A program made the position numbers and the translations under genes. From a virus (Duplodnaviria; Heunggongvirae; Uroviricota; Caudoviricetes), in the IMG/VR virus record IMGVR_UViG_3300031994_002305, positions 37,073 through 101,072 of that record: a DNA stretch of 64,000 nucleotides; one strand, given 5' to 3'. A model generated the notes under the pieces. It was not told the DNA's origin. It saw only the letters and a program-made list of their open reading frames with translations, and did not search any database. This document shows positions 27,514 through 58,787 of the stretch, piece by piece; position 1 is the stretch's first letter, and every line of letters begins with the position of its first letter.

Positions 27514-28047
27514 ATGGATAACGATACATTTAAAAAATTATATCATAATACAATACATCTAATACATATTTGGTTTAAAGATAAAAAAGATAAAGGTGGC
27601 AATGATTATATTGAACACCTTTATGCTGTTGAAAACTCAATATGGGATCTTCTCCATAATATTGAATGTTGTAAAATAGATGATATCGAAGTATATGATA
27701 CGTTGAGAAAGGCTCTTATTGTTGCTCTTTTACATGATATATTGGAAGATACTGAATGTACAGAACTACAATTAAGAGAAGCTGGTTGTGATGATGAAAT
27801 TATTGATGCAATTAAATCAGTAACGCGTCGTAAAGATGAACATAATTATTTTGATTTTATTAAACGTGCAAAACAAAATAAAATTGGTCGTATTGTTAAA
27901 AGATTTGATTTAGAAAACAATATGGATATTAGACGTTTAAATAAATTAGAAGATTATGACTTAAAACGTCTAAAAAAATATTGGTATTCATGGAGATTTA
28001 TCAATGATGAAATTTCTGAAGCAGAACTTAACTCAATTAAACTATGA
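27514..28047 (+). CDS. HD-domain hydrolase, RelA/SpoT-hydrolase (small alarmone hydrolase/Mesh1)-like
   Basis: DKGG..YIEHL..V, ALLHDILEDT, VK..DL..N. Confidence 0.75.
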   Translation: MDNDTFKKLYHNTIHLIHIWFKDKKDKGGNDYIEHLYAVENSIWDLLHNIECCKIDDIEVYDTLRKALIVALLHDILEDTECTELQLREAGCDDEIIDAIKSVTRRKDEHNYFDFIKRAKQNKIGRIVKRFDLENNMDIRRLNKLEDYDLKRLKKYWYSWRFINDEISEAELNSIKL

Positions 28048-29632: not shown

Positions 29633-29851
29633 ATGGCAAAACAAGGATCAATAGAACAATATGGTGTTATTATTGAAAATCTTTCCAATTCAATGTTTAG
29701 AGTTGAATTAGATAATGGCATTGAAATTATATGTCATATATCAGGGAAGATTCGTATTAATAATATTAGATTAATGACTGGTGATAAAGTAAAAGTAGAA
29801 ATGAGTCCTTATGACTTAACTAAAGGTAGAATTGTCTTAAGATTAAAATAA
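29633..29851 (+). CDS. infA: Translation initiation factor IF-1
   Basis: 72 aa: [29 protein letters not shown]...HISGKIR...[18 protein letters not shown]. Confidence 0.95.
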
Positions 29852-35438: not shown

Positions 35439-35846
35439 ATGCAAGAAACGGCAAATTATATTATAACAAGTGAACATATAGCTGATGTATATCAAAATTT
35501 AGTTAAAGAAGCCGAATTAGAATCACAAGAAAAAGCAATAGAAAAATATTTAAAAACACATAAAGAATATATGAATAAAAATATTAATACTGGAATGATC
35601 ATGGATGCTATTAATAATACAGCAGATATGGGAGAAAAAAATGAAGCTATGCAAGCTGCAATAGATAATGATCAAATGAAAAAATTACAAGTATTGGCAC
35701 AACGTTATAAAGATGCCCATACACAAAAAGTAAGAGAATATCCTCGTGTTGGTCGTAATGATCTTTGTCCTTGTGGGAGTGGAAAGAAATATAAAAATTG
35801 TTGTTTAGCTTCAGGTAAATTTGAAAATAAAATTATGAAAAAATAA
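35439..35846 (+). CDS. SEC-C metal-binding motif protein
   Basis: [20 protein letters not shown]. Confidence 0.85.
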
Positions 35847-53688: not shown

Positions 53689-55004
53689 ATGAAACTACCA
53701 AAGAATTATTATTCTAAAATGCTTAAACAGGAGTTTTTGAAATATGAAGAAGCTCGTAAATCTGGTAAGTATAATATGATAATGGATATGAATGCTGTTA
53801 TTGGAGAATATGGTATTGGATTTAAAAACTATATTTATATAGTTAACAATTATTCAGAATTGGCTAAGAAATATTTGTAATATGAAAAAGGTTTTTGAAA
53901 CAAATCCAGAGTTGGCAAAATTTTCAACTGAAGATTTACTTAAGGAATTATTATACAGAGATAATGCTGGTGATAATAAATTTCATTTAGTCAGTGAATC
54001 TGTTACATCATATACATTTAAATTTTGGAAATTCGTATGATTAGAAAAGATACACCACGAGCAATTAGATTTTATAAAAATCGTCCTATTGTAGAAATTT
54101 ACAAAGGATATGAGATTCGCAAATATGAGGATATGTTTGAAGTGATTGCGAGTGTTGGCATTTATGGATTTGATTCAAATCATATTGAAGGTTGTAAGGA
54201 ATTTATTGATAAATTAGTTAAACTTGGAATTAAACAAGATGATGACGAAGAAATATCAAAATTTATTTTCCATATAAAACCTTATGATAAAGTTAATTGG
54301 AAAGAATTATGAGTAAGAAAAAATTCTATTTAGCAAATTCTGTAACATTGGAAATTTCTGAAGAATATATAGATGATAATTCAAAATATTTTGAATATAG
54401 TACACCTTGGAGATTTTCCAACGAAAATGAAGCAAAAGAATATCTTAAAGAAAATTTAAAACGAAAGATTAAAGCAATAGATAATCAAATTGAAGATCTC
54501 CAAATGAAACGAGATGATTTAGTTAATAAATTATTTAATATATGAGACGTGTTAATAGAAAAATAAAAAGAGGTACTTTGAATCATAGAAATGATCCAAC
54601 GGTACAACAATATGAAAACATATATCATATTGGACATGGACTTATATTTAGAGCTTTAACTTTATTTGGTGATTCTAAATATACTCGTAATTTATGCGAA
54701 TATATTAAAAATCGTAAGAATAATGAACCAAATTTATCAAAATATACTTTTGATGAATTAATGCAAGATTTTGAAAATGGTAATCATGATTTATTAATTG
54801 AAATAGTTAACGATTATGAGTGAATTTTGTGTAATATTATACTTATGTATAGGAGTTTTTGTTATAGTTTATGATTGGAAGAAAAATTACGAAGTAAATT
54901 ATAATATAGCAAAACAATATGGGGAAACTGAGGATGCAATGGTTTGTTTATATTTCTTATTTGGAATAATACTTTGGCCATTAATTTTAATGAAACAAAA
55001 ATAA
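53689..55004 (+). other. Run of about 6 small hypothetical CDSs
   Basis: Dense + strand ORFs. Confidence 0.7.
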
Positions 55005-55049
55005 TGTTTTACTATATTTAATATAATTTACCATGAATTGGTAAATGAT

Positions 55050-55122
55050 GCCCCGGTAGTTCAACGGATTAGAATACATCACTACGGATGATATGATGAG
55101 GGTTCGATTCCTTCTCGGGGTA
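55050..55122 (+). tRNA. tRNA-Arg(ACG)
   Basis: Cloverleaf: acceptor GCCCCGG/TCGGGGT, anticodon arm CATCA-CTACGGA-TGATA, T-loop TTCGATT; no encoded CCA. Confidence 0.88.
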
Positions 55123-55123
55123 C

Positions 55124-55239
55124 AATTGAGGATGCTGAAAAAGACTACGATAGTTTAAGGGTAAAATACCTCCTGTTAGAGGGGATGCTGGTTCGAATCC
55201 ACTGAATGCTTGATTAGGTTACTTGCAAGGTTCTCAATT
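55124..55239 (+). ncRNA. tRNA-derived structured RNA (D, anticodon-like GTT and T arms) inside a non-tRNA closing stem
   Basis: Stem AATTGAGGAT/GTTCTCAATT encloses TAGTTTAAGGGTAAAAT, CCTC-CTGTTA-GAGG and TGG-TTCGAAT-CCA. Confidence 0.5.
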
Positions 55240-55244
55240 AAAGC

Positions 55245-55343
55245 TTTATTTGTATATTGTAGTGTACAATGCAATTGCAGATGCCAAAGGATAAAGGTTG
55301 AGGAGATAGGTTACGGCTCCTTATAAAAACAAATTGCGTAGCC
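55245..55343 (+). ncRNA. Candidate structured RNA ending in an H-type pseudoknot
   Basis: TGAGGAG/CTCCTTA plus GGTTACG/CGTAGCC with an A-rich linker; upstream CTTTATT/GATAAAG domain. Confidence 0.45.
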
Positions 55344-55349
55344 ACATTT

Positions 55350-55425
55350 GGCCCTGTAGTTCAACGGAATTTAGAACAGTTGGCTTCTACCCTTCAGGTT
55401 GGGGGTTCGAATCCCTCCAGGGTCA
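55350..55425 (+). tRNA. tRNA-Arg(TCT) with two U-U mismatches in the anticodon stem
   Basis: GGCCCTG/CAGGGTC, GTTGG-CTTCTAC-CCTTC, GGGGG-TTCGAAT-CCCTC. Confidence 0.75.
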
Positions 55426-55501
55426 CAAATTATTAGCTTAATGGATTATAACTATTAATTAGTTAAATATTATTTTTAATTAAATATATATATATATATA
55501 T

Positions 55502-55590
55502 ACACGGGTAAAGCGTAATTGGATGACCGCCCTGGTCTACGAAACCAGTTTATAGAAATATAATTGTGGGTTCGACTCCCACCTCGTGTA
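55502..55590 (+). tRNA. tRNA with Arg(ACG) anticodon and a long variable arm
   Basis: ACACGGG/CTCGTGT, CTGGT-CTACGAA-ACCAG, variable arm TTATA-GAAA-TATAA, GTGGG-TTCGACT-CCCAC. Confidence 0.8.
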
Positions 55591-55603
55591 CTAATTATAT
55601 AAT

Positions 55604-56386
55604 ATGGATAACATATGTAAATGTAAATATTGTGGAAAAGAATTTGATAATAAACAAAAACTTGGTGGACATATAATACATTGTGAAAAAAATCCTAATT
55701 TTGAAAATAGTAAAAAACAATTAGAATTAGCACGAAAAAATATTAAATTTATAAATAAACATCTACATTGTCAATATTGTGGAAAAGAAATTGCTAATAA
55801 TGGATGTTTAGTAATTCATGAAAAATCATGTATAAATAATCCTAATAGAGAAAAATGTCCAAATAGAAAAGGTAATGGTGGTAAAACAAAAGGTCATAAA
55901 TGTAAATGGAAAGGAAAAAATAAATTTAATGATCCAATATTAGCAAAAATATATAAAACATGGAAACAAAAATTTGATAATGGTGAATATGAATATATAC
56001 GTAATGGTCATAAACATAATGAAGAAACAAAACAACGTTTAAGAGAAATATTTGAAGAAAAAATAAAAAATCAAATTGGAAGTTTTAAATGTTTTTATGC
56101 AAAAAGAGCATGTGAATATATTGATAAATTAAATAAAGAAAAAAATTGGAAATTACAACATGCAGAAAATGGTGGAGAAATTAATTGTTTAGGATATTGG
56201 TTAGATGGATATGATAAAGAATTAAATATTGTATTTGAATATGATGAGCCTAAACATTATAAAGATGTATTAAACAATATATTAACAGATAAAGATATAC
56301 AAAGACAAAATAATATAATTAATAAACTTAAATGCGAGTTTTGGAGATATAATGAATATATAAATTTATTATATAAAGTGAATTAA
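55604..56386 (+). CDS. Putative free-standing homing endonuclease (two C2HC Zn fingers, NUMOD3-like motif, PD-(D/E)XK/Vsr-like domain)
   Basis: CKYCGK..H..HC twice, GHKHNEETKQRL, YWLDGYD....VFEYDEPKH...D..RQ. Confidence 0.7.
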   Translation: MDNICKCKYCGKEFDNKQKLGGHIIHCEKNPNFENSKKQLELARKNIKFINKHLHCQYCGKEIANNGCLVIHEKSCINNPNREKCPNRKGNGGKTKGHKCKWKGKNKFNDPILAKIYKTWKQKFDNGEYEYIRNGHKHNEETKQRLREIFEEKIKNQIGSFKCFYAKRACEYIDKLNKEKNWKLQHAENGGEINCLGYWLDGYDKELNIVFEYDEPKHYKDVLNNILTDKDIQRQNNIINKLKCEFWRYNEYINLLYKVN

Positions 56387-56564
56387 ATACTTGGGATGTA
56401 GGCTTGGAAGCGGCCATCATCTAAGGAACTAAAAGATATGATTAAAGTAAATGGTTTAATAAACTCCGATGGCATGAATTTGGAAACGCGTCCCCTTAAT
56501 TGGAAGCTGTCGGAAACGATTTTATCAAAGAAATAACATTTGCGTAACAGCGCACCAAGTATTT
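56385..56564 (+). ncRNA. Stand-alone RNA mimicking the 23S rRNA uL11-binding domain (H43-H44, GTPase-associated centre) with a 112-nt insertion
   Basis: GGATGTAGGCTTGGAAGCGGCCATCATCTAAGGAA ... TGCGTAACAGCGCAC matches 23S nt 1055-1104 (E. coli numbering, recalled sequence), closed by the perfect stem AAATACTTGG/CCAAGTATTT. Confidence 0.8.
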
Positions 56565-56571
56565 TATTTAT

Positions 56572-56643
56572 GCCCCGGTAATTCAAAGCACAGAATCTCG
56601 GTCTTCTAAACCGATTATGAGGGTTGGATTCCCTCCTGGGGTA
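56572..56643 (+). tRNA. tRNA-Arg(TCT) with a C19-G56 elbow
   Basis: GCCCCGG/CTGGGGT, TCGGT-CTTCTAA-ACCGA, GAGGG-TTGGATT-CCCTC. Confidence 0.85.
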
Positions 56644-56647
56644 CACT

Positions 56648-56823
56648 TAAGTCATTCGGTGTTATATGTAGGTTCAAGCCCTGCCGCAATGGAGATGACG
56701 ACGAACGGGAATGTATCTCATTAGTGTTAAATCCCGTCCAAGCCTTAATAGGGAGTTGCTAATGAGTAAGGTCGGACACTGTTAAATCTGTAAGTAGTAC
56801 GTAATGCTTATATGAATGATTTA
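56648..56823 (+). ncRNA. Candidate structured RNA with a T-arm-like hairpin and a pseudoknot
   Basis: Closing stem TAAGTCATTC/GAATGATTTA; GTAGG-TTCAAGC-CCTGC; CTCATTAGTG/TGCTAATGAG; ACGGGA/TCCCGT. Confidence 0.6.
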
Positions 56824-56830
56824 TTTAAAT

Positions 56831-57012
56831 AGGGATGTAGCTCAGAACTTGGACAGAGCGCGATAAAACGAAGATCGTGGTGGAAAATGTCTTGAAGGAG
56901 AAATCCAGGAGTTAAGTTTGCGGAAGCACTGAAAAGAGGTGAAACTCAAGTAAGGAAGCGCGTTTTATGTACCACCTTAAACATAGCGTGGGTTCGAATC
57001 CCATCATCCCTA
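56831..57012 (+). ncRNA. tRNA-like RNA (182 nt) with intact acceptor, D and T arms; anticodon/variable region replaced by a ~125-nt structured domain
   Basis: AGGGATG/CATCCCT-A, GCTC..GG..GAGC, GTGGG-TTCGAAT-CCCAT; inner ATAAAACG/CGTTTTAT. Confidence 0.75.
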
Positions 57013-57016
57013 CAAT

Positions 57017-57078
57017 GTGCTCGGATGGCCGTAGTTCCAACCAGACGTGGTAGGTGGTATTAAATACCTTTGGAGCAC
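57017..57078 (+). ncRNA. Candidate small four-way-junction RNA
   Basis: GTGCTC/GAGCAC encloses three short hairpins (GG-ATGG-CC, ACCA-GACG-TGGT, GGTAT-TAA-ATACC). Confidence 0.4.
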
Positions 57079-57148
57079 TATAAAAGTAATATGGGCCTCA
57101 GAAGCGTGGTAGAACTCTCATAGCTTCATTTTAATTAAACAAATAAAT

Positions 57149-57709
57149 ATGAGTAGAGGTTATAAAGTAAACAATTTAGTTTTGGATCATAACAAGAAAT
57201 ATTCCAAGATTACATCAGTGGATCTTGAAGAGAGATATGATAGAGTGTTTGGCTTTATGGTACGAACCTCACATCAATATGCTGCTGCACGAAAAGTTCG
57301 GTGGTATGAAGAATTTATTAAACATGATTCTCCTTATGTAAAAGAAAATAAAAAAAGATTTATGGAAGATATTGAAAGATATAAGGATAATTTAGATGAA
57401 GCCATTGAAAGGAGAATTTATTTGACTCATAAAGTTTTAAAGGAAATGAGTGAAGGTGTTATCAATACAATAACACAAGGTATTTGGCTTTCATATCCAC
57501 ATACAACAGAGGTTGTTAAAATTGATGAGCATAAAGATAAATATATTATATTGACTCTTTGTACTGGAGAGAAATTTTATGCATATAAGAAATGGATTGA
57601 ATATGATACTCCACGTGGAAGATATGATTACGTTAAGCAAAGATGGATAACAAAAAAGCCAATACATAAGCAATTTTATAGCAAACTTAAAATTTTGAAA
57701 AAGTTATGA
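57149..57709 (+). CDS. Hypothetical protein within the tRNA cluster
   Basis: 186-aa ORF whose TGA stop overlaps the first bases of tRNA-Arg(CCT). Confidence 0.7.
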   Translation: MSRGYKVNNLVLDHNKKYSKITSVDLEERYDRVFGFMVRTSHQYAAARKVRWYEEFIKHDSPYVKENKKRFMEDIERYKDNLDEAIERRIYLTHKVLKEMSEGVINTITQGIWLSYPHTTEVVKIDEHKDKYIILTLCTGEKFYAYKKWIEYDTPRGRYDYVKQRWITKKPIHKQFYSKLKILKKL

Positions 57710-57780
57710 TCCTATAATTCAACTGAATAGAATAATTTCCTCCTAAGAAATAAATATGAGTTTGAGTCTCATTGGGATCA
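57708..57780 (+). tRNA. tRNA-Arg(CCT) with an A19-U56 elbow
   Basis: GATCCTA/TGGGATC, ATTTC-CTCCTAA-GAAAT, ATGAG-TTTGAGT-CTCAT. Confidence 0.8.
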
Positions 57781-57788
57781 CTTAATAT

Positions 57789-57860
57789 GCTCCTATAGTT
57801 TAGTGGCTAGAACTATTATCTCGTAAGTAATCAGCATGAGTTCGATTCTCATTGGGAGCT
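57789..57860 (+). tRNA. tRNA-Thr(CGT)
   Basis: GCTCCTA/TGGGAGC, ATTAT-CTCGTAA-GTAAT, ATGAG-TTCGATT-CTCAT. Confidence 0.85.
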
Positions 57861-57877
57861 CATTTTTTATATAATAT

Positions 57878-57912
57878 TTGAATTTTTTATATTTTATTCT
57901 ATATTATATTTG
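57878..57912 (+). promoter_or_regulatory. Conserved phage promoter with overlapping TAnnTTTG
   Basis: TTGAAT-N16-TATATTATATTTG. Confidence 0.75.
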
Positions 57913-57931
57913 TAAATTTTAAAATATAAAA

Positions 57932-58429
57932 ATGGATAAGCTTAATAAGTATTTACATTCTATTATCGCTAAGCATAATGGTGCTGTGATTTATTCTAAA
58001 AGATCAACTTATTATCATTTATGTGGCAGAATAATTCGTGTATCTGATCATATAGGAAAAACAAGTGATGGCTCAATATCAATTATTTATGATGGTGCAT
58101 GTTCAGATAATTTTATAGTTCATGCACATGCAAGTGGAATGGTAAGTATTGTTAATTATGAAAATTTAAAAAATATAATTAAATCATTTGCAATTTTACC
58201 TGCACTTATTGGAATTACTTCTCAGGCATCAAATATTAATAAACAAGTAATAAATCAAAACAAAACTAAAGAAGAAACTAAAGAAGAAACTAAAACTGTT
58301 GAGATAAATAAAAATACAATTTTTGGAATTGAAAAATCAAAATTTACAGGCAAACAAATTACTAGTTTAAATAATATGATGCAACAATTCTTAAAGGTAA
58401 ATAGAGAAAATAAAGAAAATGAAAAATAA
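57932..58429 (+). CDS. Hypothetical protein (IRVSDH motif)
   Basis: 165 aa; STYY...IIRVSDH. Confidence 0.65.
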   Translation: MDKLNKYLHSIIAKHNGAVIYSKRSTYYHLCGRIIRVSDHIGKTSDGSISIIYDGACSDNFIVHAHASGMVSIVNYENLKNIIKSFAILPALIGITSQASNINKQVINQNKTKEETKEETKTVEINKNTIFGIEKSKFTGKQITSLNNMMQQFLKVNRENKENEK

Positions 58430-58465
58430 TAATAAAGTATTTTGTAGAAAAATTTTAAATAATAT

Positions 58466-58493
58466 TTGAATTTATTAAACTAAGTACTATATT
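58466..58493 (+). promoter_or_regulatory. Conserved phage promoter
   Basis: TTGAAT-N16-TATATT. Confidence 0.7.
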
Positions 58494-58787
58494 ATTATTG
58501 TAATTATTGAAATTAAATTTTCAAATTTATAATAAAATAAAAAAATATGAAAAGGAAAAAGAAGTCATTAAATTATAAAGTTCATCCCGATTCATATATG
58601 TATTTTGGAGAGGCAATTAAAGATCGAGTTATTGGTGACGAATATTTTTCTGTAGATATTTAATATAAAAGTTATGGGACCAGATAAGTATCGTAAGTAA
58701 AAAAGTTTCCTGAAACTATAAATCAGGTGGCGGCCTCTTGGAAAAATTCCAAGTTGTAATTCAAACAAAAATATAAAATAAAGAATT

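Follow-up and report, generated by a model that had tools for sequence, protein, structure and literature searches.

The segment at positions 56385 to 56564 of the window, which denotes here the whole stretch of 64,000 nucleotides of phage DNA that was analysed, is supported by sequence comparison as a free-standing copy of the 23S rRNA domain that binds uL11, with its structure preserved; the copy consists of the end of H42, H43 and H44. The same kind of comparison places the element as a divergent member of a very large family of phage RNAs, which includes those of cultured phages. The element, which was first described in an earlier note on this DNA, is no oddity confined to this megaphage, as at least 96 distinct stand-alone copies were found in phage contigs. 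The segment is proposed to be the gene for a stable noncoding RNA that mimics the GTPase-associated centre (GAC) and most likely binds the uL11 protein of the host, and we put the chance of this proposal at about even.

Correspondence to the 23S rRNA Domain

The real rrlH gene of E. coli K-12 was used as the reference for the 23S comparison, with 941 added to each locus position to give the 23S position. In an ungapped alignment, window positions 56390-56428 correspond to 23S positions 1051-1089, and 56541-56559 correspond to 1090-1108. The identities claimed in the earlier note were reproduced on rrlH for both parts: 30/35 positions agree between 56394-56428 and 1055-1089, where the five mismatches are U1061A, A1067G, A1073G, U1082C and A1086G, and 12/14 positions agree between 56542-56555 and 1091-1104, where the two mismatches are U1097C and U1101G. 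The total identity with the GAC of E. coli is 42 of the 49 compared positions. Of the mismatches, A1067G had been left out of the earlier note; G is the usual base there in Bacteroidales 23S.

The factual statements of the note proved correct throughout, and the substitutions that it had described were also recovered against rrlH. All four outer pairs in the closing helix show a compensatory exchange (CTTG/CAAG instead of GCCA/UGGU), the pair 1082-1086 is C-G, the pair 1090-1101 is U.G, and position 1061 is occupied by A. As judged from the sequence and the family alignment, the pairs of H42, H43 and H44 and the 1082-1086 pair are kept, and the nucleotides of the tertiary core are all present, namely U1060-A1088, G1071/C1072 with 1091-1100/1092-1099, A1085 and A1095. 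The element mimics the GAC at the level of the predicted fold. The closing stem is a perfect one of 10 bp, in which 56385-56394 pairs with 56555-56564, and the 112-nt insertion between 1089 and 1090 lies at 56429-56540 and forms a helix in the MFE fold; both had been described in this way before. The parts of the element and its nearest neighbours are as follows.

55604..56386, + strand: upstream ORF of 260 aa with no assigned function, outside the RNA (ORF list)
56385..56394, + strand: 5' strand of the closing stem, H42-like, with G1055-C1104 as the last pair (sequence, MFE fold, covariation in 57 aligned members)
56395..56428, + strand: core with H43 (1057-1081, including the 1067 loop), the 1082-1086 loop and G1087-A1089 (23S identity, covariation)
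56429..56540, + strand: variable insertion domain of 112 nt between 1089 and 1090 (MFE fold, family comparison)
56541..56555, + strand: H44 hairpin (1090-1104) with a GUAACA loop containing A1095, closed by U1090.G1101 (12/14 identity with E. coli 1091-1104)
56555..56564, + strand: 3' strand of the closing stem (complementary to 56385-56394)
56572..56644, + strand: tRNA-Arg(TCT) (ARAGORN; Rfam tRNA, 54.7 bits)

An Rfam search at E ≤ 10 over 54500-58500 returned tRNAs and noise only, with no match to the LSU family RF02541, and the Rfam scan of the whole window at the gathering thresholds also returned tRNAs and noise only.

Size and Carriers of the Phage RNA Family

The family was first searched for with a degenerate pattern of the H43 region against IMG/VR, which gave 29 places. 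One of these is a true rRNA, and the other 28 are stand-alone elements, each closed by a private stem and interrupted by an insert at the 1089/1090 junction. With two more patterns, the total on IMG/VR reached at least 114 elements, at least 96 of them distinct. The insert, which is 28-368 nt long, is located at the 1089/1090 junction in 96/96 distinct listed elements. The consensus order of the family is a stem of 6-10 bp, GGAUGUnGGCUUAGAAGCAGCCAUCAUUUAAAGAGU, the insert of 28-368 nt, UUUGGCGUAAUAGCACAC and the other strand of the stem, where the first base of the insert pairs with the base preceding UUU. The 112-nt insertion of the window element is thus the variable domain that defines the family.

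Copies in the cultured phages Cronobacter GAP32, Pseudomonas pf16, Xanthomonas XacN1 and Aeromonas 4_4572 are confirmed by the family model. Pectobacterium CBB carries a copy by pattern match (L054) and blastn, and several jumbo phages of Erwinia, Serratia and Yersinia have blastn matches only. The copies in published phage genomes carry no annotation. Exactly one copy is present per whole record in the genome of the window, GAP32, pf16 and the L018 contig, and the carriers span phages of the rumen, aquifers, soil and clinical hosts. The blastn search of the window element against GenBank phages gave no match, and the family model gave no copy in Lak-A1, which among named phages is the closest in a neighbouring ORF.

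A family-specific pattern was also searched over 185,579 species genomes and gave 25 places, comprising 20 stand-alone copies and 5 real rRNAs. The stand-alone copies are mostly on MAG contigs, in addition to an Acidithiobacillus chromosome and the isolate assembly of Flintibacter muris, and those in MAGs and bacterial genomes probably lie in phage or prophage DNA.

Several observations were made on individual records. In XacN1 (L192), the element starts about 10 nt after the gene at 831-1733 annotated as a 2'-5' RNA ligase, a neighbour that could have a bearing on the chemistry or repair of RNA ends. Three elements (L099, L102 and L133) diverge after about nt 1078 (GCCAUGG...) and seem to have a second insertion within H43. 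Four others (L164, L167, L168 and L180) form a distinct subfamily with a GCGUCACAGCACAU-type H44 and a shared GC-rich insert, and their contigs are binned with Nitrospira genomes (Nitrospira and related MAGs). A match in Paenibacillus phage Pd_22F was rejected as a member; about 2.7 kb near the end of its GenBank record (L191), at 82.5-85.5 kb, belong to a genuine 23S gene and are either host DNA or a misassembly.

Covariation and Conservation

The covariation was determined for an alignment of 57 members with short inserts, in which the GAC pairs, the insert-base helix and the tertiary pair U1060-A1088 were scored. Standard pairs are formed in 87% of the cells, and double changes occur at 17 of the 27 pairs. 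The covariation among the homologues, to which the earlier note had pointed as a check, is strong: the score is 0.529 compared to 0.137 for the shuffled alignments, of which 0/500 reach the observed value, and the slid controls give values of 0.19 or less. The pair 1058-1080 is seen as UA, AU, GC and CG among the aligned members (the pf16 element has G1058-C1080, where E. coli-type 23S has U-A), the pair 1057-1081 as AU and CG, and the pair 1082-1086 as UA, CG and AU. The pairs 1062-1076 and 1064-1074 covary as well, and the positions of the closing stem, in which all pair types are used, also covary.

The positions that remain unchanged in the 96 listed elements are G1059, U1060, G1063, U1066, A1069, C1072, C1075, A1077 and A1085 on the H43 side, and C1092, G1093, U1094, A1095, A1098, G1099, C1102 and A1103 on the H44 side, while G1071, G1091 and C1100 are nearly invariant. 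Both U1060 and A1088 are invariant in 57/57 aligned members. The invariant positions include the tertiary core and two loops which we take, on the basis of the 1999 L11-RNA crystal structures of Wimberly and Conn, to face the N-terminal domain of uL11, thiostrepton and EF-G. The GAC fold of the family is under purifying selection.

A covariance model was built from 54 members, where the window element and its relatives L010 and L018 were left out. The window element matches this model over its full length (1-179) with 79.7 bits and an E value of 5e-26, which is the sole match in the genome, so that a chance origin of the element is far too unlikely. Real 23S sequences reach 52-58 bits with the same model, and E. 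coli 23S reaches 57.5 bits. Two signatures of the family are absent from rRNA, namely G1090.A1101 (90-93 of the 96 listed members) and a UU linker. These signatures point to a single origin with later spread among phages, and repeated capture from the hosts would be disfavoured; the G1058-C1080 pair of pf16, in contrast to the U-A of E. coli-type 23S, is an example.

The homology with rRNA could also be explained by non-functional debris, i.e., a captured rRNA fragment, two rRNA exons that flank a degenerate intron or intervening sequence, or a chimeric assembly, and group I introns are indeed known near LSU position 1090. However, no LSU rRNA match is present anywhere else in the 376-kb phage record (CheckV 98% complete), which agrees with the earlier statement that the element has no flanking rRNA and is not a captured rRNA fragment. 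Debris is further at odds with the private, covarying closing stem, with the at least 96 independent copies under purifying selection and with the two signatures absent from rRNA. A chimeric assembly, which the earlier note had raised against its own reading, conflicts with the presence of the same locus in independent runs, both DNA and RNA, of 17 studies. A group I intron or intervening sequence was rejected, given that no intron family or other Rfam family is matched, that the inserts are as short as 28 nt and that rRNA flanks are missing. We therefore regard debris as extremely improbable.

The Variable Insertion Domain and the Megaphage Subfamily

The window element, L010 (435-kb contig) and L018 (158-kb contig) constitute a divergent subfamily. 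These three have GGAAC before the insert and U1090.G1101, where the norm of the family is GAGU and G1090.A1101, and they share a common insert of 111-112 nt. L018 shows compensatory changes: a C-G pair of the closing stem is G-C there, and a C-G pair of the insert helix is U-A. In the window, the MFE fold recovers a 9-bp helix within the insertion domain, at 56466-56474/56507-56515.

The module AGUR-N4-G[GU]CACCCC-(short GNRA-type hairpin)-GGUAAGG is present in the inserts of 21/96 listed members, always 13-15 nt ahead of the UUU linker, and its carriers include L026, L043, L057, L003 and L193. The insertion domain of the window contains a sequence resembling it in degenerate form, CCCC..GG(U)AAG, at about 56494-56511. 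The comparison of the module with E. coli 16S, 23S and 5S rRNA gave loose matches only, with 2-3 mismatches, which were judged to be chance.

A contig of a diverged relative joins 56387 to 56566, where the element is absent exactly at the boundaries of the closing stem. RNA-library contigs of other relatives replace 56441-56536 (joint 56441 to 56537), which means that the insert is swapped, and in a further contig the different insert of another family member continues from 56427. The element and its insert therefore behave as exchangeable modules.

The variability of the insert and the module in 21/96 listed members suggest that the mimic may be only a scaffold. The GAC fold would then be a very stable, nuclease-resistant platform, possibly clamped by uL11, and the work would be done by the insert, for example as an aptamer, docking element or guide. 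Such a role is consistent with a core that is fixed while the insert varies over 28-368 nt and turns over in sequence, with the swap at 56441 to 56537 and with the fixed distance of the CACCCC-hairpin-GGUAAGG module from the junction. However, the loops that face factors and uL11 (the 1067 loop; G1093, U1094, A1095 and A1098) are as conserved as the structural core, which a scaffold would not need, the insert of the shortest listed members has just 28 nt, and the inserts are not homologous across the family. We consider it unlikely that the GAC fold serves only as a scaffold.

Genomic Context and RNA-Library Evidence

The element is located in a tRNA array. The tRNA which had been reported 7 nt downstream of the element was found by ARAGORN as the tRNA-Arg(TCT) starting at 56572, and five tRNAs lie within 3 kb of the window element. 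In L010 and L018, tRNAs are present on both sides of the element, at distances of 3 nt and 6-10 nt. Across the 96 listed members, a same-strand tRNA is found within 30 nt in 40 and a tRNA within 3 kb in 65. At this position in a tRNA array, the RNA could be released by tRNA processing.

The ORF of 260 aa upstream of the element stands where L010 and L018 have their upstream tRNA, and its stop codon overlaps the first bases of the closing stem. Over 273 nt, the DNA of this ORF is about 79% identical to Lak phages; the Pfam search on it gave a sub-threshold C2H2 finger only, and that on the neighbouring ORFs gave no informative domain. Between the tRNAs, GC-richer stretches that are not tRNAs are found at 56648-57078 and 55124-55343 of the window. 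RNA-library contigs cover both at depths similar to or above that of the element, and a tRNA-like start at 56831 is not called a tRNA by ARAGORN or Rfam. Elsewhere in the window, the phage encodes IF-1 at 29633-29851 (PF01176, E 4.6e-26), and a SEC-C motif protein was confirmed at 35439-35846. The ORF at 27514-28047 near IF-1, which had been proposed to be a SpoT-like HD protein, has no Pfam match.

The stretch was found in 20 public runs from 17 studies, and seven of the runs are RNA libraries. The element is contained in contigs of seven metatranscriptome runs of sheep and cattle gut, which are contigs only, from libraries in which DNA is possibly present, and they give a hint of its expression. 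In the contigs of the phage itself, the depth is 36 over the element and 25 over the upstream ORF, i.e., there is no strong enrichment. One RNA-library contig (X4) joins 56566 back to 56368 (199 back) at a depth of about 90, compared to about 12 for the other contigs of the phage. This back-join could arise from tandem copies in a relative, from a loop in the assembly or from a circular RNA.

Comparison with the Probable Host

The public runs with the stretch sample the gut of sheep and cattle, and among named phages the closest relatives of the window phage are the Prevotella Lak phages; the probable host order is Bacteroidales. The GAC sequences of Bacteroidales 23S rRNA were retrieved with the family model for comparison. 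Both G1067 and C1097 are present in 38/38 sampled Bacteroidales genomes that include the region, where the one exception is an odd contig. The window element has the Bacteroidales-like G1067 and C1097, which occur in 13/96 and 36/96 listed members of the family, respectively. This agreement with the host, in the loop that would face translation factors and the N-domain of uL11, is what is expected of a mimic of the host site, and we treat it as a lead rather than a result.

In each of the 38 sampled Bacteroidales genomes that include the region, the 23S rRNA contains one additional U following 1077. The window element lacks this U and also differs at 1061 and 1082/1086, and it is therefore not a recent copy from the host. 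The host matching is inconsistent in the family, because two elements binned in Bacteroidales MAGs carry A1067. Position 1067, which is A in E. coli and G in Bacteroidales, is the site of thiostrepton and Tsr. The G1067 of the window element argues against a role of this member as a thiopeptide sponge.

Proposed Role of the RNA

We infer that the RNA is expressed as a discrete molecule, binds uL11 and has a physiological consequence. In the proposed mechanism, the RNA would be co-transcribed with the tRNA array and trimmed to the closing stem by the nucleases of tRNA processing, where the 5' processing of the tRNA-Arg would set its 3' end. The 5' and 3' parts would fold into a compact 23S GAC of the end of H42, H43 and H44, i.e., the 58-nt domain that binds uL11 and thiopeptides, with the variable domain projecting from the 1089/1090 junction. 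A free copy of the host uL11 site would thus be presented in the infected cell, and host uL11 would be bound. In vitro, the isolated RNA of 1051-1108 binds both L11 and thiostrepton, and it folds on its own.

Binding of host uL11 is the most likely function because the nucleotides of the tertiary core and the loops are all kept and no uL11 gene was found in the 376-kb phage record; for the latter reason, any uL11 partner would have to come from the host. Two consequences can be considered. In the first, uL11 would be titrated off the ribosomes, which would weaken the uL11-dependent activation of RelA and the cycling of factors; L11-deficient (relC) ribosomes do not activate RelA. In the second, uL11 would be recruited as a protein partner for the variable domain. 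It counts against titration that uL11 is an abundant ribosomal protein, for which very high RNA levels would be needed, and it may count against uL11 binding that the 112-nt insertion sits within the domain itself, where it may affect the uL11 surface. The molecular dynamics study PMC1919483 gave no usable information on uL11 contacts near 1089/1090.

In a broader form of the proposal, many phage lineages, among them jumbo and T4-like phages that can be cultivated, would carry such a decoy of a ribosome part, tuned to the 1067 loop of the host, which would sequester uL11 or a GAC-directed factor or toxin during infection and thereby disable the stringent response or a translation-targeting defence. 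We hold this broader form tentatively, at somewhat less than an even chance. If true, the decoy would represent a new class of viral counter-measure, namely the copying of a folded rRNA domain.

The ligand of the RNA could be something other than uL11. The RNA could soak up a toxin or antibiotic, from the host or a competitor, that modifies or binds H43/H44; Tre23-type ADP-ribosyltransferases and thiopeptides are examples. The ribosomes needed for phage translation would be protected in this way. There is a precedent for such an attack on H44, as Tre23 ADP-ribosylates the 23S rRNA at about 1095-1098 and blocks the GTPase of EF-G (PMC8661411). The invariance of G1093, U1094, A1095 and A1098 in the H44 loop of the 96 listed members fits this target. 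The location in tRNA arrays fits it too, and phage tRNA arrays are widely read as counter-measures to translation-targeting defences. However, we know of no anti-phage defence aimed at the GAC, and G1067, present in the window element and in 13/96 listed members, should weaken the binding of thiopeptides. A stoichiometric decoy would, moreover, be poor against an enzyme, and we judge protection from an attack on the GAC to be decidedly unlikely.

The free domain, with or without uL11, could instead bind translational GTPases, RelA or complexes of deacylated tRNA, and modulate translation or the stringent response directly. The conserved loops, which we take to be the contacts for EF-G and the elbow of the A/R-tRNA, would be in keeping with this, as would the states of 1067 and 1097, which are equal to those of the host order, and the IF-1 that the phage also encodes. 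On the ribosome, however, the factors need the sarcin-ricin loop and the stalk together, and the isolated GAC has weak affinity for translation factors, which makes the direct capture of factors highly unlikely in our estimate.

The domain that is copied is the site for uL11, thiopeptide antibiotics and translational GTPases and is also needed for the activation of RelA. The RNA therefore points to a previously unseen route by which phages may manipulate translation or the stringent response. The proposal is directly testable, because copies are carried by the cultured phages GAP32, CBB, pf16, XacN1 and Aeromonas 4_4572. New RNA modules, built on a well-understood scaffold, might also be discovered in the variable insert.

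Comparison with Known Systems

The earlier note knew of no described phage RNA of this kind, and this still holds: Rfam 15 has no such family, and no virus-encoded copy of a folded rRNA domain was described in the full-text literature searched, while the family is found in at least about a hundred phage genomes. The search of Rfam for an existing family, a full-length hit to which would have removed the novelty, gave no match, and Rfam 15 on twelve loci of family members returned tRNA only. The name 'L11a' in the GOLLD/ROOL preprint was rejected as a prior description; it is the name of a loop.

The element resembles the species 1/2 RNAs of T4, GOLLD and ROOL in that it is phage-encoded and adjacent to tRNAs and is presumably released by tRNA processing. 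However, in Rfam the window element matches neither GOLLD nor ROOL nor another family, and to our knowledge none of these RNAs reproduces an rRNA domain.

Compared to the bacterial 23S GAC (1051-1108), the sequence is homologous, the secondary structure is the same, and the contact and loop nucleotides are kept. However, the 23S GAC is a part of rRNA and has no 112-nt domain at 1089/1090, whereas the phage element has this domain and stands alone with a private stem inside a tRNA array. The phage family also uses G1090.A1101 (U.G in the window) in place of the rRNA pair.

The leaders of ribosomal-protein genes offer a further comparison, as the L10 leader or the L1 site on the L11-operon mRNA likewise reproduces the rRNA binding site of a ribosomal protein outside the ribosome. 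An assignment of the window element as such a leader was rejected, since it is followed by tRNA-Arg and no ribosomal-protein ORF is nearby. The leaders are cis-regulatory mRNA segments upstream of ribosomal-protein genes and are usually partial mimics, whereas the window element copies an entire folded domain almost identically and precedes a tRNA.
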